A stretch of DNA of 64,000 bases from Acidobacteriota bacterium (lineage in GTDB: Bacteria > Acidobacteriota > UBA890 > WLXD01). Positions 7,698 to 39,499 of the stretch are shown here, piece after piece (within the stretch, counting starts at the first letter, position 1; each line of letters begins with the position of its first letter). The translations under genes and the position numbers were made by a program. Below the pieces are notes generated by a model that saw nothing but the letters and a program-made list of their open reading frames with translations, was not told the DNA's origin and searched no databases. The DNA lies in NCBI GenBank assembly GCA_012103255.1, contig WLXD01000003.1, positions 141,984 to 205,983 of the forward strand, given 5' to 3'.

Positions 7698-8108
7698 TCA
7701 GCTGAAGTCGGTCGAGAGGTGCAACGAAGTGCGCTTGGCGCGCTGCCGATTCCACATCCAGACCATGCCGAGACTGGCCCAGGCGCCGAGCAAAACCAGG
7801 CTACCGATCACGCGGCCCTCGAGGCGAGCCAGAGTCCGGCCCATGTCGACGGTGGTCTCCCACGCGCCCATGTCCATCATCGCCAGGTTGTAGGTATCAG
7901 GCGACACACGTTCCAGGGAAGCGAGCTCCTGGTTCGTGTAGGGCGGCTCGGGCAGATAGCGATCGTCAAACACGTACTCGCCAGCGCGGCCACCGACTAC
8001 CCCCGCAACCCAGATCGATGCCCAGGCAGCGAGCAGGAGCACCGCGGCGCGCTGCCACGGAAAACTGGGCGGTGCTTCGAGTTCGTCGGGATATGGGTCG
8101 GTTGCCAT
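7698..8108 (-). CDS. hypothetical membrane protein
   Basis: 136-aa ORF with two hydrophobic helices. No recognised domain. Confidence 0.4.
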   Translation of the reverse strand: MATDPYPDELEAPPSFPWQRAAVLLLAAWASIWVAGVVGGRAGEYVFDDRYLPEPPYTNQELASLERVSPDTYNLAMMDMGAWETTVDMGRTLARLEGRVIGSLVLLGAWASLGMVWMWNRQRAKRTSLHLSTDFS

Positions 8109-8137
8109 CGGTTCACCTTGAATGACTAATACTATCT

Positions 8138-8160
8138 AAAACTATCTTTTCAATAGTTTT
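8138..8160. promoter_or_regulatory. perfect palindrome AAAACTAT-N7-ATAGTTTT in AT-rich divergent intergenic region
   Basis: Read directly: aaaactat cttttca atagtttt. It is flanked by TAATGACT(A/G)AAT direct repeats at ~8120-8130 and 8170-8181, and sits in the only AT-rich stretch for kilobases. Confidence 0.45.
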
Positions 8161-8394
8161 CAGCACTCATAATGACTGAATCCATGCACCGTCAACAAGC
8201 CTTAGATGCCCGTTGCGCCACAAAGTTGGAAGCGCGCCGAACAACGAGGAGACGCCTAGGATCCATGGCTCGTACTGCCGGCGGGCGCCGAACCCTGGGT
8301 GTAGAATCGATGTCAGCAGCCGCTCTTCCAGCTCCGAGCGCTGCTCTCGCGCCGCGATCGGCGCCCTTCGCCTAGCACCTCGACTGACGCATTC

Positions 8395-12044: not shown

Positions 12045-14990
12045 CTATTGCGACGGCTCTGAGGTCGTGCCGCCGTCCCAGTTTTCGGGCAGCAGCGAGA
12101 TCTGAACGTAGTTGTCGAGGTCGAAGTAGCGGCCCGCGGTGCGTTGGACGCCCTCAGGCGTAATCTCGAGAAGCGACGCCTCGTACTCGAGGATCTCGAG
12201 TGGATCGTCGCCTCGCTCGTAGGCGCTGACCAGTTGGCCAAGCCAGAAGCCGTTCTCCTCAAGCGACAGTTCGTACGAGCGACGGAAGCTCTCCGTCACA
12301 GCGTCGATCTCGCTTTGCTCGGGCGCTGCTGCCCGTAGCTTCTCGATCTCCGCAAAGACCTGCGCGGTGAGTTCCTCGACGCGATCCGGATCCGATCCGA
12401 AAGTAATCGATACCGAGTACAGGGGGTGCGGACGGTCTACCAACGAAGCCGACACCTGCGCTCCGTAGGTGCCCGCGAGGTCTTCCCGAAGCACCTCGCG
12501 CAGTCGGGTCTGCAGCACCTCGCCCATCGCGGACAACGACTCGCTTTCGGTGTCGACGTCCTCGCCAGGACCGTCGCCGCTGAAAACGATGGTCGTGAGG
12601 CTCTTGGGCTCCACGCCGCGATTCACGGTTTTCTTGATAACGCCGCGCGGCGTGCGAATGCCTTCATCAACCCAGGTCTCTTCGCGACCACCGCCGGGCA
12701 AACTGGCCAGATAGCGCTCGACCATGGGACGCAGCTCACCGAGATCGACATTGCCGACGATCACGAAGGTGAAGTCACTCACGTCTCCGAAGCGGTCGAC
12801 GTAGAAGAGATACGACTTCTCCAGATCCATCTCGTCGAGCAGATCAACGGTGAGTGGCTGCCGTCGCGGGTGGTCCTGGGTAAGCGTGCGCTGCACCGTC
12901 TCCTGGAAAGCTGCTTCCGGACTCACATCGCGGTTGGCGAGCCCAACGGTCATGCGCTCGCGGATGAGGTCGAAAACAGTTTCGTCGGCGCGCGGTTCGG
13001 TGATCGTGATGTAGGCGAGCTGGAACATCTGCTCGAGATCGCGCGGAGCTGCGGTGCCGATGAGCCCTTCACCAAGCGGCCCGATCAGAGGGCGCACACT
13101 GGCGACCTTGTCTGAGAGAAGGTTTGTGATCTCGCGCTGACTGAATCCGCCGAATCCGCTCGACGACACCACCTGCACGGCGCTCGAGGCTGCAACGTAG
13201 TCGTCGTCCGGGGCGAGCGAGGAGCCACCCGGGCTGATCGCGCGGAACAACACCTGCTCCTGGCGGAAGTCGGTGGGCTTGATCACCACGCGGGCGCCGT
13301 TCGAGAGCACCCACTCGGTGACCCCCAGTTCGGGGATCTCGCTTTCCTCGACAATGCTGCCGGGTTCCGGGTCGACGGACACCAGCGGCCGATTGACCGT
13401 CGTGTCGATGTAGGGTCGCAGCCAGGCGTCGTCTTCCAGCTCCATCGCCGCGAGCAGTTCCGCTTCCGTCGGCTGCTGCAAATCCGCCCGATCGGGCATC
13501 GTGACCAATACGACGCGGTCGTCGTCCAGCAGCCAGTCCTGTCCGACCTGGTTCACCTCGTCGAGCTCGATGCCCGGCATGAAGCGCTGGTACAGCCCCC
13601 ACTCGTAGTCAATTCCGGGGGTCGACTCGCCCTCCAGGAAAGCGCGCGTGAACTCCTCGGCGAAGTTGCGCGAGTCCTGCACTTCCTGCTCGGTGTACAG
13701 GTTTTCGAAGAGCCGCATGAGCTGGTTCTTCTCGCGTGCGAGCTCGGACTCGGTGAAACCAAAGCGAGCAACCCGCTCCAGCTCAGCGAAGATGGCGCGC
13801 AACCCGGCGGCAACCTCACCATCGGCAACGGCCGCGCCCATCACGAACGCTTCGGAACTGGGTACGAAGATGTCCTGACTTGCACCTGCGCCGAGGAACG
13901 GCGGGTTGGGTGCCTGCGCCTGCTCCGCCAGTCGGCGGTTGAACATGCGCATAAACACGCCCTCGATGATGCTGCGACGATAAGAGCCGTGATACGCCTG
14001 GCGACGCAACGGCTGGTATTGGTAGAACTCCACCGTCGACATCGTCGCTTCGGGGTCCGTCACGATCGAGAACCGCGTTCCCTCGCGCTCTTCGATCTGC
14101 TCGTAGACGCGCGGGCGCGCATCATCGGGCCCGGACTCGATCCGGCCGAAATGCTCGCGAATCTTGCCCTCGATCACATCGCCGTCGAAATCGCCGACTG
14201 CGATCACCGCCATCAACTCGGGGCGGTACCACTCTTCGTAAAACCGGCGTGCCGCACCGTGGTCGAATTCGCGCAACACGTCGATGTCGCCAATCGGCAG
14301 CCGCTCTGAATAGCGCGACCCCTCGAAGAGCACCGGCAGCTGCTGATCGCGCACACGCGAACCCGCGCCGAGGCCAAGGCGCCACTCCTCGATCACAACA
14401 CCGCGTTCCTTGTCGATCTCCTCGCCGTCCAGGGTCACGTTGTGGGCCCAGTCTTCGAGAATCTGGAACGCCGAATCCACGATGTCTTCGCGATCCGTTG
14501 GAATCACGAGGAAGTAGTTCGTGTTGTCGAACCCCGTGGAGGCGTTGACGTGCGCGCCGAAGCGCATGCCGAAGGATTCGAGCAGGGTCACGAGCTCTTG
14601 CTTCGGATAGTTCTTGGTACCGTTGAACGCCATGTGCTCGACGAAGTGCGCCAGTCCGAGCTGATCCCGGTCCTCCTGCATCGAACCCGCACGCACCACA
14701 AGCCACAGCTCGGCGCGCTTCGCCGGGTAGCTGTTTTCGCGGATCCAAAATCGCAGTCCGTTGTCGAGCTCCCCGACACGGATGCGGGGATCCACAGGCA
14801 TGTCCGCATCGAGCGGCGCCGTGGCGGCAGCCGCCGAGTCTGAGATCACCCGCAAGCGCTCGATCGGTTGGGGCCCCTGCGCAAACGCGGCGGCCGGAAC
14901 GAACAGGGTTGCCACCACGACCACAGACGTCAAACGAGTTCGCTTCAATTTCGGTCCTTGCGGTCGGGAGAAGGTCTCAGGTGTTTCCAT
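12045..14990 (-). CDS. M16-family zinc metallopeptidase (pitrilysin/insulinase-like, duplicated M16 module)
   Basis: 981 aa with a signal peptide. The inverted zinc motif HFVEHMAFNGT (HxxEH) is present, and the size fits two tandem M16 active/inactive domain pairs. Confidence 0.85.
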   Translation of the reverse strand: METPETFSRPQGPKLKRTRLTSVVVVATLFVPAAAFAQGPQPIERLRVISDSAAAATAPLDADMPVDPRIRVGELDNGLRFWIRENSYPAKRAELWLVVRAGSMQEDRDQLGLAHFVEHMAFNGTKNYPKQELVTLLESFGMRFGAHVNASTGFDNTNYFLVIPTDREDIVDSAFQILEDWAHNVTLDGEEIDKERGVVIEEWRLGLGAGSRVRDQQLPVLFEGSRYSERLPIGDIDVLREFDHGAARRFYEEWYRPELMAVIAVGDFDGDVIEGKIREHFGRIESGPDDARPRVYEQIEEREGTRFSIVTDPEATMSTVEFYQYQPLRRQAYHGSYRRSIIEGVFMRMFNRRLAEQAQAPNPPFLGAGASQDIFVPSSEAFVMGAAVADGEVAAGLRAIFAELERVARFGFTESELAREKNQLMRLFENLYTEQEVQDSRNFAEEFTRAFLEGESTPGIDYEWGLYQRFMPGIELDEVNQVGQDWLLDDDRVVLVTMPDRADLQQPTEAELLAAMELEDDAWLRPYIDTTVNRPLVSVDPEPGSIVEESEIPELGVTEWVLSNGARVVIKPTDFRQEQVLFRAISPGGSSLAPDDDYVAASSAVQVVSSSGFGGFSQREITNLLSDKVASVRPLIGPLGEGLIGTAAPRDLEQMFQLAYITITEPRADETVFDLIRERMTVGLANRDVSPEAAFQETVQRTLTQDHPRRQPLTVDLLDEMDLEKSYLFYVDRFGDVSDFTFVIVGNVDLGELRPMVERYLASLPGGGREETWVDEGIRTPRGVIKKTVNRGVEPKSLTTIVFSGDGPGEDVDTESESLSAMGEVLQTRLREVLREDLAGTYGAQVSASLVDRPHPLYSVSITFGSDPDRVEELTAQVFAEIEKLRAAAPEQSEIDAVTESFRRSYELSLEENGFWLGQLVSAYERGDDPLEILEYEASLLEITPEGVQRTAGRYFDLDNYVQISLLPENWDGGTTSEPSQ

Positions 14991-24371: not shown

Positions 24372-25464
24372 TCACGCGATCTCAGTGTTTTCCGCACTAG
24401 GCTGCAGCCACCGTGATCCGGTCCGCACGAAGTACGTCAACCACATGACGATTCCAACGAACTTGGCGCCGTCTTCGAAGATGAACGGGTTCAGCCCGGG
24501 AATGCTCACGACGTCCAGACCCACGGACGTGATGAAGAATCCGAGGGCGATGGCAAGTAGTTGCCACTCCGTCGCACGGATGATTCGTCGGAACCGGGTC
24601 AGATAGGCCGCTATCGCGATCATGTAGGTGACGATCAGCACTTTCTCGGGAATTCCGAGGCGAGGGAGTTACGCGCTCGTGCCACAGAAAGGTGTCGTCG
24701 AGGGCAAGCACGGTCGTGAACACCGCCGAGGCCACCAAGAACCGCCGCACGGCCGGATTGGCGGTCCAGTTGATGCCCGCCACGAAGAAGCAGATCGCCG
24801 CCGCAGCGGCCCAAAGCAGGAGCCCGAGCTGCGATAGCGCGCCCGTCACGGGCGGCAGGCCAGCCACCTGCGTCACATCCCGAATCAAGACGTCGAACGG
24901 CACGCCCGCGACGAATCGCTGCTCCACAACAAAGCCTATTGGCACGGCGGCGGCAGCGAAGGCAAGAAGCATGACCCGCGCCAGCGGCATGCGGGCCGAC
25001 CGCTGGACGACGTGTTCCGGGCTTGCACCGATCCGGAGGCGTCCGCCCGCGGCTGCGGCGATCAACGCAAGCAGGGCGGCCAGCGCGAGACCCGCCGTCG
25101 TATGCCATACGGCATATTGCGACGTGACGATCACGAAGCCAAAGGTCGCCGCCACCGCCACCGCCAGCGGCAACGCGACAACGCGTGCGGGCACCCGCGC
25201 ATCGGCGCTGGTCCACAAGGCGACACCCAGCACAAGCAGCAACGCCCCTGACACGCGCGCAAATCCGATGCCGGCCCAAACAACCTCGACAGCGGGAGCC
25301 GGTTCAAGCGGCGGAACCGCCTGCCCGCCGATGACCTCGAATGCCGTGGGCCCCGCAAGCGCAACCCACAGCCCGAGCGCCACGGTCAACGCGGCGACGC
25401 TCCGCGCAAAGTACTGCCACATCGGCAGGAGGCGTGAGGAAGAAGCGTGGGTCTTCGGTGACAT
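24372..25464 (-). pseudogene. polytopic membrane protein gene interrupted by a frameshift (or sequencing error) near 24650-24680
   Basis: The 355-aa ORF (24397-25464) loses protein-like character after …LALDDTFLWHE. The hydrophobic continuation (…EKVLIVTYMIAIAAYLTRFRRII…WLTYFVRTGSRW…) lies in another frame (24372-24641). The two frames overlap around 24641-24676. Confidence 0.45.
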
Positions 25465-25580
25465 GCGTCAGGTCCAGGGCTTTGCCTGGCGACGACCTGG
25501 CGACGCCGGGCGCGAGCCCAGCATAGTTGAATGCCCGCCGGACCAACAGGCTCGCGCCGACGGGCTAAGATCGGAGCCGT

Positions 25581-25664
25581 CGCCGGAGTGGTGGAATGGC
25601 AGACACGCGGGATTCAAAATCCCGTGGGCTTTATGCCCGTGTGGGTTCGAGTCCCACCTCCGGT
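25581..25664 (+). tRNA. tRNA-Leu (anticodon CAA), class II with long variable arm
   Basis: Hand-folded cloverleaf: acceptor GCCGGAG/CTCCGGT, D-arm, anticodon stem CGGGA/TCCCG with loop TTCAAAA (anticodon CAA), 17-nt variable stem-loop GGGCTTTATGCCC, T-arm GTGGG-TTCGAGT-CCCAC, discriminator A. Confidence 0.85.
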
Positions 25665-25752
25665 ACTTATGCGATGAGCGGCATCGGAAAACGCGACGCT
25701 AGCGGTTTCTCCCACAGCAAGTTCCGCGCGACTTCGCCGAAGGAGAAACAGG

Positions 25753-26223
25753 ATGCCGAAACCCATCCGCTACTCACTTGTCTCGATGCTCGGTGTCGGC
25801 CTGGTGGCCACGTGGCAGGCATTCAATGTCGGAGTCGAGTCGGGTGCTGAGCAGGCGTTCCAGGAGAACTCAACTTCGGCCGCCGAGCCGGACTTTGTCG
25901 GTCATTGGGAGGGCTCGATCGCAGGGGTAATCACGCTCGTCTTTCACATCACGGAATCGGACGGGACGTACTACTCGACGCTCGATGTTCCGCAGCAGGA
26001 CCTGGCTGGACGGGTCATGGACAGCACCACGATCGATGGGACGAAGCTTCGCATCACGTTCGATCTGATAGGGGGCGTCTTCGCGGGCGAGATGCTGGAT
26101 GACGGCACGATAGCGGGGACCTGGCGCCAAGCGCATGGAGGCGACCCGTTTGCCCTGAATCTCCGGCAGCGGGGTAGCGAGTCGTTGGCGCCCGCCGAGG
26201 CGCCGGGCCGCGTCCCGGGCTAG
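25753..26223 (+). CDS. secreted hypothetical protein
   Basis: 156 aa with an N-terminal hydrophobic signal/anchor. No motif recognised. First gene after the tRNA. Confidence 0.5.
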   Translation: MPKPIRYSLVSMLGVGLVATWQAFNVGVESGAEQAFQENSTSAAEPDFVGHWEGSIAGVITLVFHITESDGTYYSTLDVPQQDLAGRVMDSTTIDGTKLRITFDLIGGVFAGEMLDDGTIAGTWRQAHGGDPFALNLRQRGSESLAPAEAPGRVPG

Positions 26224-26355
26224 AAGGGATCCCCCGCCTCGCCGCGGTGGTGGCTTGCACCACGGTGTCGCACGCTGACCACGAGCGCGACGACCTGGTC
26301 AGCGAACCGCTGCCTGCACCTCGCACGAGTAGAAAGCGCTCTCGTGGATACTCAA

Positions 26356-27264
26356 CTAGCCCACGAACCCGCCCCTGACGGCGCGCACGCCGTAGGCCCA
26401 GAAGCCCTCCAGGTCCGGCGGGAACCTACTGATTTCTCCGGCCCGCTGGCGCGAGCCGTGCGTCTTGTGCGTCTTGTACAGCAAGAACAGACCGAGATTC
26501 TTCATTGTCTGGTCGCGTTCTGTCGCCGCTTCCTTCTCTGCGACGGACTCGAGCACAGCAATCGCGAGATCCGGCGCTTCTCTCATCATCACAAGCGCGG
26601 CACCGTATCTCACTGCATTCTTGATCGACGGGACGTCGTGGTAGCTCGCCCTTAGCTCGTTGAGCTTGGGTTCGATTTGCTCCACCGATCGGGTCCACAT
26701 CGCGGCCCGCTGAGCTGGCGATGACCGGGGCGGCAGTACGTCCGTTTCCGATAGCGCCATCGTTATAGCGACGTGAACGTAGGTTTCAGGTGCCCAGAGG
26801 GTTTCTTCGGCTGAGTCACGGCTATGGCTAACGACCCCGCCGAACAGAAGGGCGATCAGCGCCGTGATGGCAGCAGCCCGCATCGAGGGAAGCGGCTTGT
26901 AGTGCGTCGGCGCGGACGCGGGCGTTGCCTCGGGCGTCGGCGCGTGAGGCGTGAACAGCACGCCACGGCCGTGCAAGGTGCGAAGGAAGACCGGGGCTGC
27001 AGCCGTCTCGCCAAGAGCGCGCCTCAGCAGATGGACGACTTCGCAGATCGACTGGTCGGCGACCGCGGTTGCCGGCCAGCACGCTCCGAGTAGCTCATCC
27101 TTCGTGATCGGGCGGTCCGGGTTCGCTAGCAAATAGCTCAACACGCGGGCGCATCGGGGGTCCAGGTCAACCCGACCATCAGCTCGATGAAGCGACCCCG
27201 TCAGCGCGTCGAACTCCATGTCTCCAACGCGTGATCGTAGAGCCTTGTCCGATCCGTTCTGCAT
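26356..27264 (-). CDS. CadC/ToxR-like membrane-bound transcriptional regulator (OmpR-type winged helix + TM + periplasmic helical/TPR-like domain)
   Basis: The N-terminus …LDPRCARVLSYLLANPDRPITKDELLGACWPATAVADQSICEVVHLLRRALGE… matches the Trans_reg_C winged helix. One TM helix (AAITALIALLFGGVV) is followed by a helical periplasmic region. Confidence 0.65.
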   Translation of the reverse strand: MQNGSDKALRSRVGDMEFDALTGSLHRADGRVDLDPRCARVLSYLLANPDRPITKDELLGACWPATAVADQSICEVVHLLRRALGETAAAPVFLRTLHGRGVLFTPHAPTPEATPASAPTHYKPLPSMRAAAITALIALLFGGVVSHSRDSAEETLWAPETYVHVAITMALSETDVLPPRSSPAQRAAMWTRSVEQIEPKLNELRASYHDVPSIKNAVRYGAALVMMREAPDLAIAVLESVAEKEAATERDQTMKNLGLFLLYKTHKTHGSRQRAGEISRFPPDLEGFWAYGVRAVRGGFVG

Positions 27265-27478
27265 GGCAACGGTTCTATCACACCAAGCGCGGAGCCTGCG
27301 GGAACCACGGGGGAGCCGCCAAAACTAAGAAACCACTAAGGACTTTCTAGCCCCGATCGCGCACGGTCCGTGCCACCAATCCATTACTACAGACGGGGTC
27401 GCGCAGAAGGGGTTCGCGTGCTCGACGGCACGCTCCAGTCCACCCGCCCCGTCAGGCAGCTATGCCGGAGGTTTTGCG

Positions 27479-27733
27479 ATGGCCGAAACGAGAATCGCCG
27501 ACCGAAACGACGACTATACGACCGTGGCAGATAGGGCCAACCGAGTGGGCTGTGACTGCTGTTGCACGGACGCCGTCGCCCGCGTCCTTTGCTGCTGGAT
27601 GCAGACCGATGAAGGCAGCCAGGGGAATCGCGACAACACGGCCGAGTTCGCGAGCCAGTTGATGGCGGCCCTTGGGTGCGATCCGCAAGCAGTATCGAAG
27701 AGTCGTCGCGCTGATGACTGCGACATCGACTAA
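27479..27733 (+). CDS. small acidic Cys-rich hypothetical protein (possible partner/antitoxin of downstream RelA/SpoT-domain gene)
   Basis: 84-aa ORF preceded by GGAGG 6 nt upstream. Its TAA stop lies within the RBS (GGAGG) of the next gene. Contains a CDCCC…CC cluster. The coding call is uncertain. Confidence 0.25.
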   Translation: MAETRIADRNDDYTTVADRANRVGCDCCCTDAVARVLCCWMQTDEGSQGNRDNTAEFASQLMAALGCDPQAVSKSRRADDCDID

Positions 27734-27745
27734 CGGAGGCACAGC

Positions 27746-28708
27746 ATGAGTCTCCCGTACCGGTTTCTGTTTGGCGCTTTCTTCGCAGTCTTGCCGGCGT
27801 CAGTTGGTCTTGGCCAGGAGACCGCGCAGGCACCGCAAACCGCGAGCGTTTCACAGGAGGTGCTCGCGCCGGTGACCGTCGCGCGTCGCCTGTCCTCAGC
27901 CAACACCATCAACTGCAAGCTAGGGGACTACGCGACGGCCGACTTCTTCGCCCTTCCTCCCGACGAGCAAGACCTGTTCCTGACCGAGTTCCGGGCTAAG
28001 TACGCGGCCACGCTGCGCGCGACGCGCGATGCGCTACGCGCCCTACTGCCCCGGCCCGTTTACATGGTGTCATTCCGCCTGAAGACGTCGGTGAGCATCA
28101 AGGAGAAGATCACCCGCAAGGGCTACAGCTGCTTCTCCCAGTTCTCCGACATCGTGGGCACACGAGTGATCGCTCCTGCGTACGCCTCGTTCGGGGCCAT
28201 CCAGCGAACGATCACCGACACCTTCGATGTCGCCAAGGCCGAGAACCTACTCGACGACAAGCCCGGCGGTGGCTATCGCGCCCTGCACTATGACGTGATA
28301 GTGCTGGGGCGCAAGGCCGAGATCCAGGTCATGACGCGCAGGATGGCCGCCTTCACGGAGAGTTCTCATCCACTCGCGTACAAGGGGCCGTACGCGGAGC
28401 CGAATGACCCGTCGAAGGACACTCCGGAAGCCAAGGCTGTCCGCGGGTATCTGAAGAAACTGGGCGATGCGATTCACGAACTGGATAGAGGCAACTCAGC
28501 TACTCTGCCCCCGATCCCCGCGACTCTCCCGGACGACGCCCAGGAGCGGCTCAACAAGACAATGGTTAAGCTTGTCTCGCTGAGTTCCATCGATCCAATC
28601 ACGCCGCTTACGTTCGCGGAGATCTTCGTCAACCCGGCGCTTGCTCTGCTTGAGTTCTACGCGCTAGACGAGTTCCTTCCCATCGCGCTGATCGAGCAGG
28701 AACAATAG
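27746..28708 (+). CDS. RelA/SpoT (RSH) nucleotidyltransferase-domain protein, toxSAS-like, with signal-peptide-like N-terminus
   Basis: …RLKTSVSIKEKITRKGY…DIVGTRVI…GGYRALHYDVIVLGRKAEIQVMTRRMAAFTESSHPLAYKG… matches the RelA_SpoT synthetase core (D-x-G-R-V, GY(R)xLH, EIQ(V/I)xT, YK). There is no HD hydrolase domain. N-terminus MSLPYRFLFGAFFAVLPASVGLGQE. GGAGG RBS 7 nt upstream. Confidence 0.75.
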   Translation: MSLPYRFLFGAFFAVLPASVGLGQETAQAPQTASVSQEVLAPVTVARRLSSANTINCKLGDYATADFFALPPDEQDLFLTEFRAKYAATLRATRDALRALLPRPVYMVSFRLKTSVSIKEKITRKGYSCFSQFSDIVGTRVIAPAYASFGAIQRTITDTFDVAKAENLLDDKPGGGYRALHYDVIVLGRKAEIQVMTRRMAAFTESSHPLAYKGPYAEPNDPSKDTPEAKAVRGYLKKLGDAIHELDRGNSATLPPIPATLPDDAQERLNKTMVKLVSLSSIDPITPLTFAEIFVNPALALLEFYALDEFLPIALIEQEQ

Positions 28709-28854
28709 CCGCAATTGCCAGGTTCCGCGGCGCACATGCAACCTATCTCGCCTGTGCGCGCGGCGAGAGCCCGAAACTTCCACAATCTCCTACACACTTC
28801 CACAAGTTGTGCAGAAAACTCTTTAAATATAGATATCTAAGAGTGCAGGCACAG

Positions 28855-28908
28855 GATTCAAAATCCCGTGGGCGCAAGCCCGTGTGGGTTCGAGTCCCAC
28901 CTCCGGTA
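28855..28908 (+). repeat. direct repeat = truncated 3' portion of tRNA-Leu(CAA) (attR-like), copy 1
   Basis: 54 nt identical to the tRNA from the anticodon loop to the discriminator, except the variable-arm loop (gcaa vs tttat). Confidence 0.85.
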
Positions 28909-29113
28909 CTAATATTTTCGACGACTTACCTCGTTGCCGAACAACGCTTGGACAACCGGAGCCTGGCGCGCCGCCGGATCGGACCCTGGTACGCAGAGGT
29001 CGGATCTCGTAGGGTCGTCTGCGACGCTTGTACGCGGCTTCACTGCTAGCCTGGCCGGTACCCCGTCAGCCCTCCGACAAGGGGCCGGCCGTCGGCGTTC
29101 GGCCGACCTGGAG

Positions 29114-29956
29114 ATGCGAAACATGGCGGACGACACCCCCCCGTCGATCGAGCAGATTCGCGAATGGCTGGCCCACGAGAGCATGTCTGGGTATGGCTTG
29201 ATGCGCCGCTGCACGTGGCCGGGAAGGAAGCCCGCCGTAGAGCTTCTCTACATCATCGACAGCACCGGGGGAGAACAAAGCCGGAAGCACCGAATGTCCC
29301 ACGACCACTATCGCTGGGTCACCCGGATGTTCTGGCGCTCTCGTCGCCTGTACGAGGCAATTCTCTTTCTTCTCGATGCCGCTCAGCCCGAAGAAGCGGC
29401 AATCCTGGCGCGCTCGTTGTTTGAGGACAGCATGCGTCTAATGGAGCTCGCTGAGGACGAAAACAAGCGCGACGCCCGGATCATCTGGTGGATGAACGAC
29501 TCAATTCAGCGAGCGTTCAACCTGCAGAGGGGGGATCCGGCATTTGAAGTCGAGGACAGACTCATACTTTCACGCCACGAGTTGGAGGGGCGGCGGGCGG
29601 GCCTGCAAAGGTACGCTGCGTACCACGGCGTGACCAAGTACGAGAGGTTCAGTTCGCCCAAGGACGCGGCTACCCGGTTTGATCGGAAGATGTCCTATTC
29701 CCTGTACATGTGGGCGCATCAAGCGACGCACGGGAACGACGCCGTTTGGGGAGTCGCAGCCGTGAAGCGGCCGGAAGGCGGCGAACTCCTGAATGCGAAG
29801 ACAGCGGATGTCCTGTGGCTCAAGATGGTGGCCAACTTTGCCATCCAGGCAGTGTTCGATGCCATGATCGCCGCCGCCTCAGTGCTTGGATGGGCAGTGC
29901 CAGAAGAAGCGTTCTCGAAACTCGACGAGTACCAGCAAGCTCGCGACGAGCAATAA
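29114..29956 (+). CDS. hypothetical protein (all-alpha, no recognised domain)
   Basis: 280-aa ORF; alternative ATG at 29123. No motif I can name. Confidence 0.5.
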   Translation: MRNMADDTPPSIEQIREWLAHESMSGYGLMRRCTWPGRKPAVELLYIIDSTGGEQSRKHRMSHDHYRWVTRMFWRSRRLYEAILFLLDAAQPEEAAILARSLFEDSMRLMELAEDENKRDARIIWWMNDSIQRAFNLQRGDPAFEVEDRLILSRHELEGRRAGLQRYAAYHGVTKYERFSSPKDAATRFDRKMSYSLYMWAHQATHGNDAVWGVAAVKRPEGGELLNAKTADVLWLKMVANFAIQAVFDAMIAAASVLGWAVPEEAFSKLDEYQQARDEQ

Positions 29957-30687
29957 CCGGTGCCCCGGCGGCCAGGAGGCGTGCCTGGACATCGCTTCTG
30001 CGAGCGGTCGTCGGGATCTCGGTCTCGTCGTCTAGTCAGCATCGCGCAACGTCTCTTCGAACTGCTGTACTTCCAGCCTTCGGAGCCGGTGCTTCGAGAC
30101 TCGTTGCGCCAACTGCGCCGCTGACCCAACGCCAGCCTCAATCTGGCTCGTTGGTGGCGAGTCGGAAACATAGGGGCGCCGTCGAGCCGTCTGTGCACTT
30201 GCCCTCGTTATCCCGGCGCTCTAGTTGCCGTGCCGTGCCAATCTTGAAGTAGTCGGCGTCGGCCGTGCGGCCGCGCCGGAGCCCAGGACCAGGGGCTGGC
30301 CCCACGGGCCCACCGCCGCATGCTCGACATCGCGAAGGGCTCTTTCGTGTACCGGATAGTGCGGCCGTCCACGCGTAGTGCGTCTTCGGCCTCCGATCCT
30401 TCTTCGTAGCGCGTGATCAAGATGGTATCCGCCCGGTCACCTATCAGCATGAACAGGGCAACTCTTGGGCCCCGCCACACCGCTCGAAGCCTCTCCGGTG
30501 TTCCGGCGGCGTGCGGTGCGCACATGGTGCCTGTAGTGGCCCGCGCAACTCTGGCTGCCATCGTCGGGCCAGCCGGCGGCTGTCCGCTGCCGCTCCGAAG
30601 CTGAACGGCTCGCGGGGTCCCAGACGCTCACCAGGGTGCAGCTCGCTCCCGCTGCCGTCGATCAGGACACTGCGGCCCGCCGGCAGA

Positions 30688-31275
30688 TCAGCGGTGTCCG
30701 TCCGCAGCGCCAGTGCCCGGCGTAGGGAGTACCGGTTCGTCGTCCATGACGTCGTTCTGGTTGAGCAACGGAACAATTAGCACGTCCCCGTTCGTAAAGA
30801 CCTTGGCGTCCTTTCTCGCCAACGTTGCTTTGTAGTGGTAATTGCCTACGCGTTGAACCTCGAAACTCGCACCGTCCTGCGTGCTTTCGTACTCAACGAA
30901 GTCCTTTCCGCCTTGGCTTCTCTTCCATTTGTCCTGCTCAAACTCGATCCATCTGTAGCGCATGATTCGCGCCCGCTGAGGCTCAGGTTTCGGTTCGGGC
31001 GGGTTCTCGAGATACTTGTGGCGCTCTGGCAAATGCACAGCGAATCCATCGACCCAGATACGCGCGTCGTTCACCTCGTACCACTCCGAACCGAGACCGG
31101 CACGAGGGTAGATCTGCAGGCGACTGTTCTGGTAGTCGCCTGCCCGCCAAGAGAAGGCGCGATCATACGGCCGACCCGGACCATTCTCGTCCCACCCCTT
31201 GAGGCTGCCGTCCTCTTTGTGGGTGCCCCACAGAACCACCTCTACGAATCTATGGCAGAACAAAGCCAGGTCCAT
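30688..31275 (-). CDS. hypothetical protein
   Basis: 195-aa ORF, divergent from the TIR gene. Charged and aromatic-rich (…WYEVNDARIWVDGFAVHL…). No recognised domain. Confidence 0.5.
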   Translation of the reverse strand: MDLALFCHRFVEVVLWGTHKEDGSLKGWDENGPGRPYDRAFSWRAGDYQNSRLQIYPRAGLGSEWYEVNDARIWVDGFAVHLPERHKYLENPPEPKPEPQRARIMRYRWIEFEQDKWKRSQGGKDFVEYESTQDGASFEVQRVGNYHYKATLARKDAKVFTNGDVLIVPLLNQNDVMDDEPVLPTPGTGAADGHR

Positions 31276-31544
31276 CTCGTCCCTCCATGGTCGTTTGAGC
31301 GAATGCAGCTAGAACCCGCGCCGGGTTCCCTTTCCGACAACTGCACAGGCGCGCCTATTCAAATTGGTCTCGTTTCGTCGCCAACTGCTCGAGACCGCTG
31401 CGCGTGGGAACGATCGTCGAGGGCTCCCGCTCCCCGCAGGGCATGTAGCGTTGACGTCAAAGTTCCCATATAGTTCCCTCATGGGAGTCGGGATGCGGAT
31501 CGTGGGAAATGGTGAAGTGTAGGAAGTGTTCGCAGGAGGCCGGT

Positions 31545-33137
31545 ATGAGAAGGGATAGGGGCGGGCTTGTGGTTGATCTAGCGGCAGAACTGGAAACCCT
31601 GATGAAGGCCGGAGGGGTGAAGGGCTACGTCAAGGCGAGCGAAGCGCCTATCCTCGGCGTCTGTGCGGAGCACTCTGGCCGCGATCAAGAGCCTCGGCAA
31701 GCGCTGGAGGCGCTCGTGCGATCCGCGATCGCGAGGATCGACGCCGGCCAGGACCGGGAGGCCCTGACTGAACTGTTCCTGGCACCCACGGGCGATCAGT
31801 CGCTGGCCGCACGCGGAGCGAAGGCGGCCGAACACTTTGACATCAGCTACGACGCGCTCCGCCGTCGGAACGATCAAGGCGTCCGGCGAATCGATTCGCT
31901 GTTGGAGCAGCTGGCGGCGAACGTCAACCGCGTCTGTCCGCTGGATGATCTTCTCGGTGACGCAGGGTATCGAGGGGCTTCGCTCGACCCGGGGCCCGGT
32001 GCAGTGAGTCGAGCGCAAGTCTTTCTGAGCTACTCGCACCACGATGATGCGCACGAAGGCGGCCTAGTTTCCTCGCTTCGAGACGCCCTGATCCGGGAGT
32101 TCCGTTTTCAGACCGGCCAGGACCTTCGCGTGCTCCATGACAAATCCGGGATTGAGTTCGGCGAGGACTGGCGGCGGAAGATCGAGGATTTGCTAAGCCA
32201 GACCAGCTTCCTACTCGTGATCCTTACGCCATCGTTTCTGACGAGCGAGCAGTGCCGGGCCGAGTTGGCGAGGTTTCTGCAGCATGAGCGGGCACGAGAC
32301 CGAGATGACCTCGTATTGCCGATCTACTACGCCCCTGTGGATGAGGACGCGGAGGACCACCTCGTAGCGGCATTGCTTGCGCGCCAGTACGTGGACTGGC
32401 GAGGGTTGCGGTTCCTGGACTTTGGTTCTCCCGAGATCAGGATGGCAGTTGCCAAGCTGGCGACGTCTGTCGCCGCTGCACTTGGACGCCGACCCGAGCC
32501 GGTCGAGACTCCGACAGACGACGTTTCCCCGACAGAACTCGGCACGGTTGAGCACTTCGCGAAGATGCAACTCGCGCTTCCTCGGGTCATCCGCGGCATC
32601 GCGACATTCACGAGTGAGCAAGAGGGCGTTGGGAACGAGTTTCGGCAGACTACGGAGCAGCTGAACAGGTTGAACCAGAGCGGCCAGGGAGCTGCTTCGC
32701 AGCTGTTCGTTGCGACTCAGCTGCGGTCGAGGCTGGAGCCCTACGCAGACCGGATGGAGGGGATCTCAGCCGGCGTCCGTGAGGACCTTGAGCTGATCAA
32801 AGGCGGCATCCACGCGATCGCGGCTGAACTTCCAGACTCTCAGGAGGCGGGGCTCGAGGAGACGACGCTCGGTATGCTCGACGCTATCCGCGAGTCGCTA
32901 GGTGCGATGCAGGATGCCGAGGACAGCGTCGAGGAGTTCGCCGACGTGGCCACAGGGCTAGGCCAGAAAACCTCGACGCTGAGGCCTGTGCTGAATCGAA
33001 TCGTGGCGTCCGCTCGCTTCGTCCGCACTTGCAAGGAGCGGTTCGCGCAATGGCTTGGCATTCTTGAACAAGCCCTGGACGACTGGCGGAGAAAGGCTGC
33101 GTCCGTTCCGCCGCCCGAGGACGAATCCCAGCGGTAG
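31545..33137 (+). CDS. TIR-domain protein with N-terminal helical (HTH-like) region and long C-terminal coiled-coil/helical domain
   Basis: …AQVFLSYSHHDDAH…GQDLRVLHDKSGIEFGEDWRRKIEDLLSQTSFLLVILTPSFLTSEQCRAELARFL…LVLPIYYAPVD… is the canonical TIR pattern, including the Glu in the …SEQCRAEL… block. AGGAGG RBS 5 nt upstream of ATG 31545; an in-frame upstream ATG exists at 31509. Confidence 0.8.
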   Translation: MRRDRGGLVVDLAAELETLMKAGGVKGYVKASEAPILGVCAEHSGRDQEPRQALEALVRSAIARIDAGQDREALTELFLAPTGDQSLAARGAKAAEHFDISYDALRRRNDQGVRRIDSLLEQLAANVNRVCPLDDLLGDAGYRGASLDPGPGAVSRAQVFLSYSHHDDAHEGGLVSSLRDALIREFRFQTGQDLRVLHDKSGIEFGEDWRRKIEDLLSQTSFLLVILTPSFLTSEQCRAELARFLQHERARDRDDLVLPIYYAPVDEDAEDHLVAALLARQYVDWRGLRFLDFGSPEIRMAVAKLATSVAAALGRRPEPVETPTDDVSPTELGTVEHFAKMQLALPRVIRGIATFTSEQEGVGNEFRQTTEQLNRLNQSGQGAASQLFVATQLRSRLEPYADRMEGISAGVREDLELIKGGIHAIAAELPDSQEAGLEETTLGMLDAIRESLGAMQDAEDSVEEFADVATGLGQKTSTLRPVLNRIVASARFVRTCKERFAQWLGILEQALDDWRRKAASVPPPEDESQR

Positions 33138-33598
33138 GCACGAGGGCCCGGGCGCGCTCCTGGCCAGCCCCGCGGATCACAGGTGCTTGAGACCCACGGT
33201 CTCAACAGTATTCCCCCCAATCGTCGGCCAAGATGTTGCTCGATTCCTGAACCAGGAATCGAATGGCGCCGGGGGCGCCGCAACACCTCGGCCCGACTCC
33301 GTGGTGATTGGTGGAGCCTCAGCGAAATCCCGCAGCCGTCTCTCCATCTCGGCAGGACGGAATTGACACGGAGTCGGGGTTGGTGCCCGACGATTGGGGG
33401 GAATCACAAACCTAAGGAACGCAACGACTTAGGTTTGTTCTTGAGCTTCCGGTAGGTATTCGTTTCCTGAAACGAATAGGCAGGTGGAGATCTCGACCGT
33501 GCAGCCGGCGAGAACCCGAAACTTCCACAATCTCTTGCGCACTTTCGCAGTGCGGAGATTTTTCTTCTTTATTTATAAGTATTTAGATCAGGCATCAT

Positions 33599-33655
33599 CG
33601 GATTCAAAATCCCGTGGGCTTTATGCCCGTGTGGGTTCGAGTCCCACCTCCGGTA
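33599..33655 (+). repeat. direct repeat = truncated 3' portion of tRNA-Leu(CAA) (attR-like), copy 2
   Basis: 57 nt identical to the tRNA 3' part (cggattcaaaatccc…cctccggta), including the variable loop. Confidence 0.85.
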
Positions 33656-33730
33656 TTTTGGAGTCGAAGCGTCGCAAGGCGGTACCAGGGGACGACGGAG
33701 GGCAACTCGGTGTCGTGGGGAATCAGCTTT

Positions 33731-34171
33731 CTAGTCGAGCACGTTCGCCCGAGACGGGCCCGACACGAAGACCAGGCTTCCCGCCACGCCGCTCAGAAAC
33801 AGCGCTGAGGTCAAGTAGAACAGCCCTTCGATCGATTCGAGTGCGTCGCTGAGTGTCAGTCCGGCGCCGACGCTCATCGCCGACGCGACCCCGATGAGCA
33901 CCACGAACAGAGTCGTGGCGAGCGCGGTGATGGCCAGAGAGAATCTCGCGGCTGTGCCGAGTTCCGTCTTCAACGCCAAGCTCACCAGTCGCAGACCTCC
34001 GCCGAACAGAAGCGCGAACAACAGGATGCTGATGTGCTCGAATGGCGTTCCCTTCAGGAACCCGCTCAAGAACATCAGGACGAAGAGCACGATCAGCCCC
34101 CAGACCACCGCGCGGATTCGTCTGCGTTCGTTGTCGCGGCTAGGCCCTTTCTTCTGGTTCGCGCCCATCAT
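33731..34171 (-). CDS. small hypothetical membrane protein (4 TM helices)
   Basis: 146-aa hydrophobic ORF (MMGANQKK…). The ORF finder's 460-aa extension is spurious. Confidence 0.4.
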   Translation of the reverse strand: MMGANQKKGPSRDNERRRIRAVVWGLIVLFVLMFLSGFLKGTPFEHISILLFALLFGGGLRLVSLALKTELGTAARFSLAITALATTLFVVLIGVASAMSVGAGLTLSDALESIEGLFYLTSALFLSGVAGSLVFVSGPSRANVLD

Positions 34172-34390
34172 CAAGCCTCCAGGACGTGCCTGCCGGTCGC
34201 CGGCACGATCGTCAGGCGTTCCCATCGAGTAACGGTTGACGACGTCAACATTACATTTCGATGTTGTCGGCGTCAACATATGCACTCCGACCTTCCGCGC
34301 CTTCGGTGCGCGGTTCCGCAACTGGCGAGCCACGACGATGCCCCCGCGGGTGCCTGGACACTGCCTGGGCTCAGGTTCGAAAATAGTGCG

Positions 34391-34954
34391 ATGGACGACG
34401 CACGCGTGAGGGAACTGATGCGGTCGGCGTGGGCCAAGCGCCGGTCTTCCTTCGATGCCACCCCTACGGATTGTCGGTCCCTGCTCGCCGCTGCGAAGCA
34501 GGAGTTGACCGAGGCGTCCGAACTGTCTCGGTCCACGGGCGGCGCGACGTATGCGCAGGCGATCCACTTGCTCGCGAACGTCGAGGTCGACCTCGACGAG
34601 CCGGGTCGTGCCCGACGGCTGTGGGAGGAGGCAATCGCAATACTCCGAACCACCGACGACGTTCTGGAGCTGGCCCATAAGCTGCGGCACCTCGGAGACC
34701 TGCACCATCGCGCCGAGCGGCTGGCGGCGGCGGCGGCTTGCTACGACGAGTCGCTGCTGATCTATCGAGAGCACACGGGGCCGGGCAGCCTCGACTTTGC
34801 CAACGCCGTCAGCCGCGCAGCCGAGCTCCAGGAGCGACTCGGAGAACGGGCGGAGGCGGCTCGGTTGTGGCGCGAGACCCGCGACCTGTACGCCTCGGTG
34901 AACCTGCCGGCCGGCGTAGAGCAGGCCGAGCGCCGTTTGCAGCGGCTGCGCTAG
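34391..34954 (+). CDS. TPR-like repeat protein
   Basis: 188 aa. Helical repeats with alternating A/L-rich pairs (…AQAIHLLANVEVDL…, …AAACYDESLLIYRE…, …AEAARLWRETRDLY…). Confidence 0.45.
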   Translation: MDDARVRELMRSAWAKRRSSFDATPTDCRSLLAAAKQELTEASELSRSTGGATYAQAIHLLANVEVDLDEPGRARRLWEEAIAILRTTDDVLELAHKLRHLGDLHHRAERLAAAAACYDESLLIYREHTGPGSLDFANAVSRAAELQERLGERAEAARLWRETRDLYASVNLPAGVEQAERRLQRLR

Positions 34955-34970
34955 CGCGATCGTGCCCCCA

Positions 34971-34993
34971 TGGGTTCGAGTCCCACCTCCGGT
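34971..34993 (+). repeat. direct repeat = 23-nt 3' end of tRNA-Leu(CAA) (T-loop to discriminator), copy 3
   Basis: gggttcgagtcccacctccggta is identical to 25642-25664. It lies 16 nt after the TPR gene stop. Confidence 0.75.
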
Positions 34994-35111
34994 AGCTAGA
35001 ACATTCGCTCGCTGATTCCGGCGCCCCCTGTCGGCAGCATCGTCGTCTGCAACGTGTAGCATCACGGATTCCGAAACTGCGCAGCACGAAGCGCTAAACC
35101 AGGGAGTCCGC

Positions 35112-38646: not shown

Positions 38647-39003
38647 CTACTTGCTATCGAATCGCTCGTTTGCCCGCAACAGTGACGCCTCGTTCTCCGC
38701 GCCCCAGTCGCAGATCATCTTGAAGATCGGGTGCAGACTCTGACCCAGCGCTGAGATCTCGTACTCCACTCGCGGCGGAATCTCCTCATGGAAAGTGCGC
38801 TCCACGAGCCCGTCCCGCTCGAGCTCCCGCAGTCGCTGAGTCAGCATCTTCTGAGAAATGTCGGGAATTGCTCGGCGGAGTTCGCTGAATCGTTGACGTC
38901 CGTAGAACACCAGCGAAAACACGATCGCAGGTTTCCACTTGTTCCCGACGACCTGCATCATTCGTTCAACGCGATCGATCAGCTTCCGTTCTTCGGGTTT
39001 CAT
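38647..39003 (-). CDS. HxlR-family (MarR-like winged helix) transcriptional regulator
   Basis: …VVGNKWKPAIVFSLVFYGRQRFSELRRAIPDISQKMLTQRLRELERDGLVER… is the HxlR signature. Confidence 0.8.
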   Translation of the reverse strand: MKPEERKLIDRVERMMQVVGNKWKPAIVFSLVFYGRQRFSELRRAIPDISQKMLTQRLRELERDGLVERTFHEEIPPRVEYEISALGQSLHPIFKMICDWGAENEASLLRANERFDSK

Positions 39004-39100
39004 TATGAGAGTCAGTATACATTAGGTGCCTTATTGACAAAGTAAACCACGTTTCTAAAAGATACTGGGACCTCAAATCTCAAACTCGAGAAACGGACGT

Positions 39101-39499
39101 ATGAGCACCATCGACGCAGACGACTTCGGAACGATTGAGCGCGACGAGACGACCAATCTGGTGCGCCTCAGCTGGCTCCCGGAGACCGAAGACATGACGT
39201 TGGAAGACTTCAGGAACACGCTCACGGTGCTCGCAGACGCCGTCGTCGAGCACGGCGCCAGCGGCGCCTTGGTGGACGTGCGGGAGTTTCGTTCAGAGGT
39301 TCCCGAAGAGGATGACGGCTGGCGCGAAGAAGTGATTGTCCCCAGGTACAACACCGTGCTTAGCCGGTTTGCATGGCTGGCAGGCCCTGAATTCGAGGAA
39401 CTGCCCGGGGGTGGCGGCGTGTATTCGAACGACGGCGAGGAGTACGCGAATCGCTGGTTCCACGACGAGGACGAGGCGATCGCCTGGGCCACGGCCTGA
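39101..39499 (+). CDS. hypothetical acidic protein
   Basis: 132-aa ORF divergent from hxlR. No recognised domain. Confidence 0.4.
   Translation: MSTIDADDFGTIERDETTNLVRLSWLPETEDMTLEDFRNTLTVLADAVVEHGASGALVDVREFRSEVPEEDDGWREEVIVPRYNTVLSRFAWLAGPEFEELPGGGGVYSNDGEEYANRWFHDEDEAIAWATA

Follow-up and report, generated by a model that had tools for sequence, protein, structure and literature searches.

Cis-mobilizable elements (CIMEs) and their tandem accretion at att sites were described by Pavlovic et al. (2004) and by Bellanger et al. (2011), both covered in the review PMC5704250. CIMEs are flanked by att sites, lack integration and transfer genes, lie one behind another at a target gene's 3′ end and have related ends around unrelated content, and in all of these respects they resemble the small islets analysed here, which follow a tRNA-Leu(CAA) gene in a 64-kb window (the whole stretch of DNA that was analysed, 64,000 nucleotides). 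The definition of a CIME rests, however, on its relation to an ICE or IME that is already known and supplies the integrase for its mobilisation, whereas no such partner of the islets was found in the collections searched; the islets also differ in that only their right arm is conserved and in that their host is known as an uncultured Acidobacteria MAG. Islander islands (PMC4383910) share with the islets an intact tDNA and a displaced, direct 3′ fragment. In the anticodon-loop sublocation class of Williams 2002, the identity segment is bounded by the anticodon stem on one side and the 3′ end on the other and the regenerated tRNA is chimeric, which again matches the islets. Islander requires an integrase inside each island, whereas islets A and B have none and are small at 3.2 and 4.7 kb; these two sizes lie within the 2-200 kb range of islands, that of islet C (1.3 kb) below it.

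The tycheposon islands of Prochlorococcus (bioRxiv 10.1101/2020.12.28.424599) resemble the array in that successive tRNA integrations push older elements inward, leaving partial tRNAs and degenerate elements with niche or defence cargo. What defines a tycheposon, however, is having its own replication modules and a recombinase of the tyrosine or serine type, none of which was found in the islets, and tycheposons belong to an unrelated lineage. Integron cassette arrays are likewise made of short, integrase-less tandem units of 1-4 genes, each closed by a conserved module of recombination type with an inverted repeat inside it, but neither an integron integrase nor attI is present in the window, a tRNA 3′ segment takes the place of attC as the repeat, and the genes of the islets lie in both orientations. 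In attP sites of the lambda type, arm-type integrase sites, accessory sites and IHF sites surround the core, and arm-type sites often recur on the opposite arm. The islet arms recall such sites in that they have, ∼60-110 bp away from the core, an inverted repeat and phased direct repeats (with a degenerate second copy in B), set off from it by AT-rich DNA at a fixed distance. They differ in that the motif is missing from the other arm and in that an IHF consensus is lacking; they are candidate arms recognised from sequence, with no similarity to any characterised attP.

The array has the order tRNA-Leu(CAA), islet A, fragment A, islet B, fragment B, and continues past fragment B with islet C and a 32-nt fragment C (Table 1). 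This A-B-C order is the same in all assemblies of the population. The repeated att identity segment is the 3′ 59 nt of tRNA-Leu(CAA) (25610-25668), and three direct repeats of the tRNA 3′ part lie 3′ of the one intact tRNA, all in the same orientation. Fragments A and B, which the initial annotation had called attR-like, are indeed 58-59-nt copies of this last part of the gene. Fragment B is 98% identical to it over 33600-33658, and the core repeats are intact at both ends of islet A and of islet B. ARAGORN and Rfam call only the intact tRNA, and a reading of the fragments as functional tRNAs or known RNAs was rejected.

Table 1. Features of the tRNA-Leu(CAA) array, with positions counted from the first letter of the window.
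Feature	Position	Strand	Remarks
Intact tRNA-Leu(CAA), putative integration target	25582..25666	+	ARAGORN; Rfam tRNA 56.4 bits; repeat family D2
Islet A cargo	25667..28744		156-aa protein, Trans_reg_C regulator (minus strand), 84-aa ORF, RelA_SpoT-like 320-aa protein
Conserved block A	28745..28804	+	core 29-mer 28761-28789; repeat family D4
AT-rich spacer A	28805..28853	+	GC 0.35
tRNA fragment A, putative attR core of islet A	28854..28911	+	anticodon stem to 3′ end
Islet B cargo	28912..33489		DUF5677 protein, 195-aa protein (minus strand), TIR-domain 542-aa protein
Conserved block B	33490..33549	+	core 29-mer 33506-33534; repeat family D4
AT-rich spacer B	33550..33599	+	GC 0.32
tRNA fragment B, putative attR core of islet B	33600..33657	+	repeat family D2
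Islet C	33658..34962		145-aa membrane-like ORF (minus strand), 178-aa TPR-like ORF; without conserved block
tRNA fragment C	34963..34994	+	T arm and 3′ acceptor strand only; 32 nt, 91%; repeat family D1

In its variable loop fragment A reads GCAA, the intact tRNA TTTAT; the stem is kept. Such a variant is in keeping with site-specific integrations that came one after another and crossed over at the anticodon stem-loop, and would be expected if the element had brought its tRNA sequence from another host; it is likewise consistent with the two separate insertions proposed earlier. According to Williams 2002, the anticodon stem is one of the symmetric sublocations preferred by tRNA-targeting tyrosine integrases, and the start of the repeats at this stem supports integrase-mediated insertion at tRNA-Leu(CAA). 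The same sublocation of a tRNA-Leu(CAA) is occupied by a provirus in IMG/VR, in which ∼70 nt separate the end of the integrase gene from the attR fragment downstream. Fragment C, a third and shorter fragment that had escaped the initial annotation, is the mark of an older insertion at a different sublocation of the tRNA gene.

Islets A and B end in a common block of 60 nt (82% identity). The 45-bp block described earlier is thus real, while its extent was set too short, the homology running 16 nt further upstream; the two strings first reported as ∼85% identical are both present, displaced by 1-2 nt, and over 44 nt they differ at 6 positions (86%). The core 29-mer is identical at 28 of 29 positions, with CGGCGAGAGCCCGAAACTTCCACAATCTC starting at 28761 and CGGCGAGAACCCGAAACTTCCACAATCTC at 33506. 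Allowing up to 3 mismatches, the core strings have only 2 matches in the 64 kb, whereas none turned up in 100 shuffles. If the tRNA repeat is set aside, the block is the sole significant match between islets A and B (BLASTN E = 1e-10; next best E = 0.045). An inverted repeat is preserved in both arms, as TCTCGCC (28746-28752), N9 and GGCGAGA (28762-28768) in block A and as TCTCGAC (33491-33497) and GGCGAGA (33507-33513) in block B. Block A further contains direct repeats of ACTTCCACAA at 28776-28785 and 28796-28805, at a spacing of 20 nt; block B, the other of the two arms compared in all, has ACTTCCACAA at 33521-33530 and a degenerate second copy, ACTTTCGCAG, at 33541-33550 (7/10). A second hairpin is weak in block A (∼28793-28811) and terminator-like in block B (33538-33554). 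Reading the block as a small ORF (common frame ARxRNFHNLL) was rejected: on inspection of both copies, 7 of the 8 differing codons are non-synonymous, which argues that the block is conserved at the nucleotide level, and the C-termini are unrelated.

As had been noted at the outset, each block is followed by a very AT-rich stretch. The GC content of both spacers contrasts with 0.64 for the window, and their most AT-rich 45-nt stretches rank in the lowest 0.13% (A) and 0.05% (B) of all 45-nt windows. Spacer A contains the palindrome TAGATATCTA (28830-28839) and CAGGCA adjoining the core; spacer B opens with a T run after the second hairpin and has CAGGCA near the core. Residual homology between the spacers is weak (global score 4 versus −8.5 ± 3.6 in shuffles, p ∼0.0025). 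The distance from the core 29-mer to the tRNA fragment is 93 nt in A and 94 nt in B, close to the ∼95 nt originally given. The two termini are homologous, as proposed, over ∼168-170 bp comprising block, spacer and tRNA fragment, and the islets have nothing else in common. This homology has a sharp upstream limit at the block, from which it continues across the spacer as far as the core; between A and B, no homology was seen in the 100 nt that precede the block (p = 0.99).

The cargo differs between the two islets, in agreement with the initial annotation, with Trans_reg_C and RelA_SpoT proteins in A and DUF5677 and TIR proteins in B. Genes of both islets have weak similarity to candidate defence genes. 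In a homologue search the RelA_SpoT protein of islet A proved nearly an orphan. Homologues of the TIR protein of islet B are 45-50% identical and lie on short contigs, one of them just downstream of tRNA-Pro; the conserved block is absent beside all TIR homologues found. Behind the cargo genes of islet B lies a tail of 350 nt of non-coding DNA with two perfect hairpins.

We consider the termini to be, with fair probability, attR junctions of two elements that integrated separately and belong to one family, which targets tRNA-Leu(CAA). The ∼110 bp of the same element-derived end sequence is the reason to regard A and B as two insertions by one family. Crossover would take place at the anticodon stem-loop of tRNA-Leu(CAA), the incoming element's own tRNA 3′ part restoring the gene and pushing the previous 3′ part downstream, so that C would have been inserted first, B next and A last. 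The element-derived attP arm of that side would be the ∼110 bp preceding each fragment, which contain the 7-bp inverted repeat, the near-invariant 29-mer with ACTTCCACAA at a 20-nt phase and the AT-rich spacer. The spacer may be easily bent DNA that holds the block 93 or 94 nt from the core, and the arm may bind the N-terminal domain of the recombinase, an accessory directionality or bending protein, or both, building the recombination complex. Tandem accretion of elements that keep their att sites and lose their integrase is documented (PMC5704250).

Pfam searches of the islet ORFs and gap ORFs revealed neither an integrase gene nor a remnant of one in the islets, and no transfer genes in islets A and B; the called genes of the window include no recombinase of whatever type, and neither an excisionase nor a related full-size element was found. 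Since neither A nor B encodes an integrase, both have the appearance of decayed or cis-mobilizable (CIME-like) elements. If they can still move, they would do so only through a cognate integrase from elsewhere. It is possible, though in our judgement doubtful, that they are neutral relics, dead remnants of two related elements whose block has been kept through recency alone and has no present function. The missing integrase fits such a reading, as does the lack of conservation of the left arms: those of A and B have nothing in common, and no k-mer of at least 8 nt from the block recurs, on either strand, within the 200 nt that open the left end of each islet. The unvarying A-B-C order also points this way. 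Logan contigs of 3243 and 4749 nt were considered as circular forms and rejected, the islet length being explained by breaks at shared 31-mers; these contigs stop at the repeats, as expected of an assembly with k = 31, and give no sign of excision. Against neutral decay stands the graded conservation of the arm, in which the core is kept at 28/29 positions, the block flanks have diverged further and the spacer can hardly be aligned; uneven constraint fits this gradient better than uniform decay does, a comparison of n = 2 copies in which constraint is inseparable from recent common ancestry. In addition, the distance to the core has been kept within 1 nt despite indels in the spacer.

Several features of the arms would also suit a transcription module, in which cargo transcription would terminate at the hairpins and T-rich tract, the AT tract would act as a promoter across att, or both. 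The hairpin of B, CGCAC-N7-GTGCG followed by GAGATTTTTCTTCTTT, meets the terminator pattern (33538-33554 plus the T run), two other strongly AT-rich spots examined in the window (8091-8209 and 38974-39103, between genes or at a gene start) look promoter-like, and each module lies upstream of the next islet in the array. We nevertheless regard this as unlikely. The hairpin of A is weak and has no T run, and a terminator scan calls none there; no sigma-70-like promoter is called in either arm, and the −10-like hexamers seen by inspection have no common −35. There is no match to an Rfam family, and neither a terminator nor a promoter explains the near-invariant unpaired 29-mer or the fixed distance to the tRNA fragment.

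A replication or transfer site acting in cis on an excised circle is very improbable. The 10-mer at a 20-nt phase beside a 50-bp AT-rich tract loosely fits an iteron-like origin, and the inverted repeat directly before a conserved 20-nt stretch loosely fits an oriT nick region, but the repeats number only two, one of them degenerate in B, and match the DnaA-box consensus TTATCCACA at 6/9 positions by inspection, the islets contain no rep, primase or relaxase gene, and the arms have no similarity to plasmid or phage sequences. Similarly improbable is a second end made in place, in which the 59-nt tRNA repeats would have allowed homologous recombination or gene conversion to duplicate the ancestral end, for although these repeats could support RecA-dependent exchange and fragment B is 98% identical to the tRNA, the blocks differ by 18% and the spacers by far more beside a nearly identical tRNA repeat, fragment A has its distinct variable loop, and what precedes block A is unrelated to what precedes block B.

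The initial annotation had further suggested that the conserved block plus A/T tract may be an integrase arm-type or IHF-binding site, and had proposed a search for the block in related genomes as a check. The IHF consensus WATCARNNNNTTR, which is that of E. coli and may not hold in Acidobacteria, is absent from both arms even with one mismatch. Only chance matches were obtained with the exact core 19-mer in 185,579 representative genomes (the source genome not being among them), with the core 18-mer in JGI metagenome contigs, and with the core 16-mer and a gapped block-plus-anticodon pattern in IMG/VR; the matches of the exact scans all lie inside unrelated, mostly coding sequence. With the arms as BLASTN queries, phage and plasmid sequences yielded no match beyond AT-rich noise at E ∼0.9, and an nhmmer profile of the two arms found no third copy in the window and 57 fetched loci. 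Carbonic anhydrase homologues, used to find relatives, are at most 75% identical. Two loci from one relative (L043 and L044) carry the CA-porin gene pair and no tRNA-Leu, and the genes of islet C are not conserved there. As far as these sequence searches reach, the proposed element family has not been seen outside this population.

As the evidence stands, the array is a textbook signature of tandem integration with an uncharacterised arm sequence. The kind of structure is already known; here it occurs in an uncultured Acidobacteria genome. A bolder reading, to which we assign a low probability, is that the ∼170-bp terminal module is the only mobility determinant, and that the islets are a tRNA-anchored array of integrase-less cassettes with defence-like genes (TIR, RelA/SpoT-like), moved in the fashion of integrons by a recombinase encoded elsewhere. 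The array illustrates how one tRNA gene in a poorly known phylum gathers small cargo islets, and its conserved arm provides a short sequence handle for locating the family and the missing integrase. If the islets do still move by means of an outside integrase, they would be minimal hitchhiking elements, consisting of ∼170 bp of cis-acting DNA and their cargo.

The window has a single tRNA gene, tRNA-Leu(CAA) (Rfam, 56.4 bits), whose last 59 nt recur as two direct repeats (denoted fragments A and B); the repeated segment starts with the 5′ strand of the anticodon stem and includes the remainder of the gene. A shorter copy of 32 nt (fragment C), which comprises only the T arm and the 3′ acceptor strand, is 91% identical. 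These repeats make the locus a tandem array in which each fragment ends a small gene islet. The initial annotation had recognized islets A and B; it overlooked islet C, a 1.3-kb segment closed by fragment C and without the block that the other two share. Islet C suggests that an earlier insertion took place here, with an element targeting the T-loop sublocation. The A-B-C order is shared by all assemblies of the population, which are 99.95% identical. At the head of the array, a public 328-aa gene call (24692-25702, + strand) crosses the tRNA gene; its translation is of low complexity and rich in A, R, T and S. This call is probably spurious; a better candidate for the gene is the overlapping minus-strand ORF of 355 aa (24397-25464).

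Features of the tRNA-Leu(CAA) array (window coordinates)
Feature	Position	Strand	Content or context
tRNA-Leu(CAA)	25582-25666	+	array start
Islet A	25667-28853		156-aa protein; Trans_reg_C regulator; RelA_SpoT-like protein
Block A	28745-28804		near right end of islet A
Fragment A	28854-28911		ends islet A
Islet B	28912-33599		DUF5677 protein; 195-aa protein; TIR-domain protein
Block B	33490-33549		near right end of islet B
Fragment B	33600-33657		ends islet B
Islet C	33658-34962		two small ORFs
Fragment C	34963-34994		ends islet C
Carbonic anhydrase gene	35112		downstream of fragment C

The core 29-mer CGGCGAGARCCCGAAACTTCCACAATCTC occurs exactly twice in the 64 kb, at 28761 and 33506, still only twice when up to three mismatches are allowed, and not at all in shuffled sequences. 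Core and flanks make up a 60-nt block with 82% identity between islets A and B. When the three islets and the flanking sequence were compared all against all by BLASTN, this block was the only significant A-B similarity (E = 1e-10; runner-up, E = 0.045). GC content drops to 0.35 in A and 0.32 in B in the spacer that separates block from fragment (window, 0.64); the spacers' most AT-rich 45-nt stretches belong to the lowest 0.13% and 0.05%, respectively, of all 45-nt windows, and the two spacers align above shuffles (p about 0.0025). Neither the 100 nt that precede the blocks (p = 0.99) nor the left ends of the two islets (p = 0.12) aligned better than shuffles. The homology therefore has a sharp start at the block and covers ∼168 bp, the tRNA fragment included; the core 29-mer is located 93 nt (A) and 94 nt (B) upstream of the fragment. 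These data establish the homology of the two islet termini and bear out the initial annotation, which had described a shared ∼45-bp block, an AT-rich spacer and a like distance to the tRNA fragment.

At the start of the block is an inverted repeat (A, TCTCGCC-N9-GGCGAGA; B, TCTCGAC-N9-GGCGAGA), which folds as a 7-9-bp hairpin in both islets. The unpaired, almost invariant stretch that follows holds the 10-mer ACTTCCACAA, which is repeated exactly 20 nt downstream in islet A (28776 and 28796); comparison of the two arms, that is, of block plus spacer, shows the second copy in islet B to be ACTTTCGCAG, a match at seven of ten positions. The second copy sits inside a second hairpin, the sequence of which differs between the islets; with its T run this hairpin fits the terminator pattern in B but not in A. 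Fold z-scores are modest (-1.8 to -2.75), and an Rfam search of the arms yielded no family match. A small peptide encoded by the blocks (shared frame ARxRNFHNLL) was rejected because seven of the eight differing codons are non-synonymous and the two frames continue into unrelated sequence; judged by these sequences, the block is conserved at the nucleotide level. Two further, perfect hairpins, ACAAACCTAAG...CTTAGGTTTGT and TATTCGTTTC...GAAACGAATA, are found at 33405-33480, within the 350-nt non-coding stretch from the TIR gene to block B, and have no counterpart in islet A.

The ∼110 bp upstream of each fragment are best read as an element-derived attP arm kept at attR; the two elements would belong to one family but differ in cargo. 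An arm that binds a recombinase or accessory proteins is expected to combine an inverted repeat, direct repeats in phase and a fixed-length AT-rich spacer, and the anatomy suggests such binding here. The earlier proposal of an integrase arm-type or IHF-binding site is weakened by left arms devoid of the block motif, by the lack of an E. coli-type IHF consensus in the arms and of an integrase for the islets. That the arms are instead neutral relics of two dead, related elements is less likely. Only two copies are available for comparison, which leaves room for this explanation, but conservation is graded (28/29 in the core, a spacer that hardly aligns, a distance constant to within 1 nt), which speaks mildly against it. 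A terminator or promoter module is improbable: the islet B hairpin with its T run supports it, as do two other strongly AT-rich spots checked in the window, which look promoter-like; however, islet A has no terminator, no shared promoter was called, and the invariant unpaired 29-mer would be left unexplained. An origin-like or oriT-like site, for which the anatomy is the sole argument, is unlikely. Duplication of one end in place is unlikely, given that the arms have diverged beside a nearly identical tRNA repeat and that fragment A has a distinct variable loop.

This loop reads GCAA in fragment A (28873-28878) and TTTAT in the intact tRNA (25629-25635) and fragment B, whereas the stem GGGC/GCCC is the same in fragment A and the intact tRNA. 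In the standard model, the incoming element restores the gene with its own tRNA 3′ part and pushes the former 3′ part downstream (PMC4383910); the variable loop of fragment A fits this displacement. Islet C would have inserted first, B second and A last. The attP of islet B would have borne the GCAA loop, so the host from which islet B came would have had a tRNA-Leu of slightly different sequence; given the two loops, the present tRNA gene would therefore be a chimera. The repeated segment starts at the anticodon stem, one of two symmetric sublocations favoured by tRNA-targeting tyrosine integrases (Williams 2002, as summarised elsewhere). Both this start and the loop of fragment A are evidence of site-specific integration. 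An IMG/VR provirus (L050/L051) likewise targets tRNA-Leu(CAA) with a repeat starting at the anticodon stem, and its own integrase gene ends ∼70 nt upstream of the attR fragment, but its sequence is unrelated to the islets. L043, a locus of a relative that shares the carbonic anhydrase-porin pair, has a tRNA-like 3′ segment with a terminal CCA immediately behind the porin gene (12320-12415) and lacks an intact tRNA within 10 kb; this segment, too, may be a displaced att fragment.

Exact scans for core k-mers returned two matches in 185,579 representative genomes, 13 in IMG/VR and 14 in JGI metagenome contigs, one of the last inside an 870-aa ORF. These matches, all in unrelated and mostly coding sequence, are attributable to chance. 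A gapped block-plus-anticodon pattern had no match in IMG/VR, BLASTN of the arms against phages and plasmids gave nothing meaningful, and a profile of the two arms detected no third copy in the window and all fetched loci. The collections searched thus hold no multitude of block copies unrelated to tRNA fragments; nor do they offer any wider element family carrying the block. The arm sequence is so far uncharacterised and private to this lineage. Islet-length Logan contigs, considered as possible circular forms, are accounted for by breaks at shared 31-mers. Two Logan contigs of islet A (L010, L011) end at 28880, 27 nt short of the expected break at 28907; a second sequence with ACAGGATTCAAAATCCCGTGGGCGCAAGCC may thus be present in the metagenomes, or a variant at 28881. 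The early stop could reflect another copy of this end or merely strain variation.

The cargo of the two insertions differs, as the initial annotation had stated. The RelA_SpoT and TIR proteins show weak matches to the candidate defence families PDC-S33, PDC-S66 and ThsB. The islet ORFs, the gap-filling ORFs and the called genes of the window and its flanks showed no integrase or recombinase domain. The 320-aa RelA_SpoT-like protein (27746-28708, + strand), for which a search of 5.8 billion proteins returned a single distant homologue (39% identity), starts with an apparent signal peptide (MSLPYRFLFGAFFAVLPASVGLGQE), as does the first protein of islet A (156 aa; 25753-26223, + strand); a secreted RelA/SpoT-like protein would be unusual. 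Upstream of the islet B TIR gene lies the motif TTCCCATA-N-TCCC-CATGGGA (31463-31495), which also precedes two TIR homologues of 46-49% identity (L052, about 330-360; L054, about 810-840). There, a ∼60-codon ORF for a small membrane protein begins inside the motif and precedes the TIR gene; in islet B it is shortened to 13 codons. On L052, an 8-kb metagenome contig, the TIR homologue (519-2069, 49% identity) lies directly downstream of tRNA-Pro(CGG) (36-110), which suggests that the TIR gene family moves in tRNA-linked islets elsewhere as well; the contig showed no repeat of a tRNA-Pro fragment.

It would be a long shot that the islets are cassettes anchored at a tRNA gene and handled by a recombinase from another part of the genome. 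Because islets A and B are both without an integrase, they correspond to cis-mobilizable elements as described in the literature, which stack up by tandem accretion (PMC5704250); the degenerate elements and partial tRNAs of tycheposon-shaped islands resemble the islets as well. Taken together, small integrase-less islets arrayed at a tRNA gene represent a structure already of a known kind.
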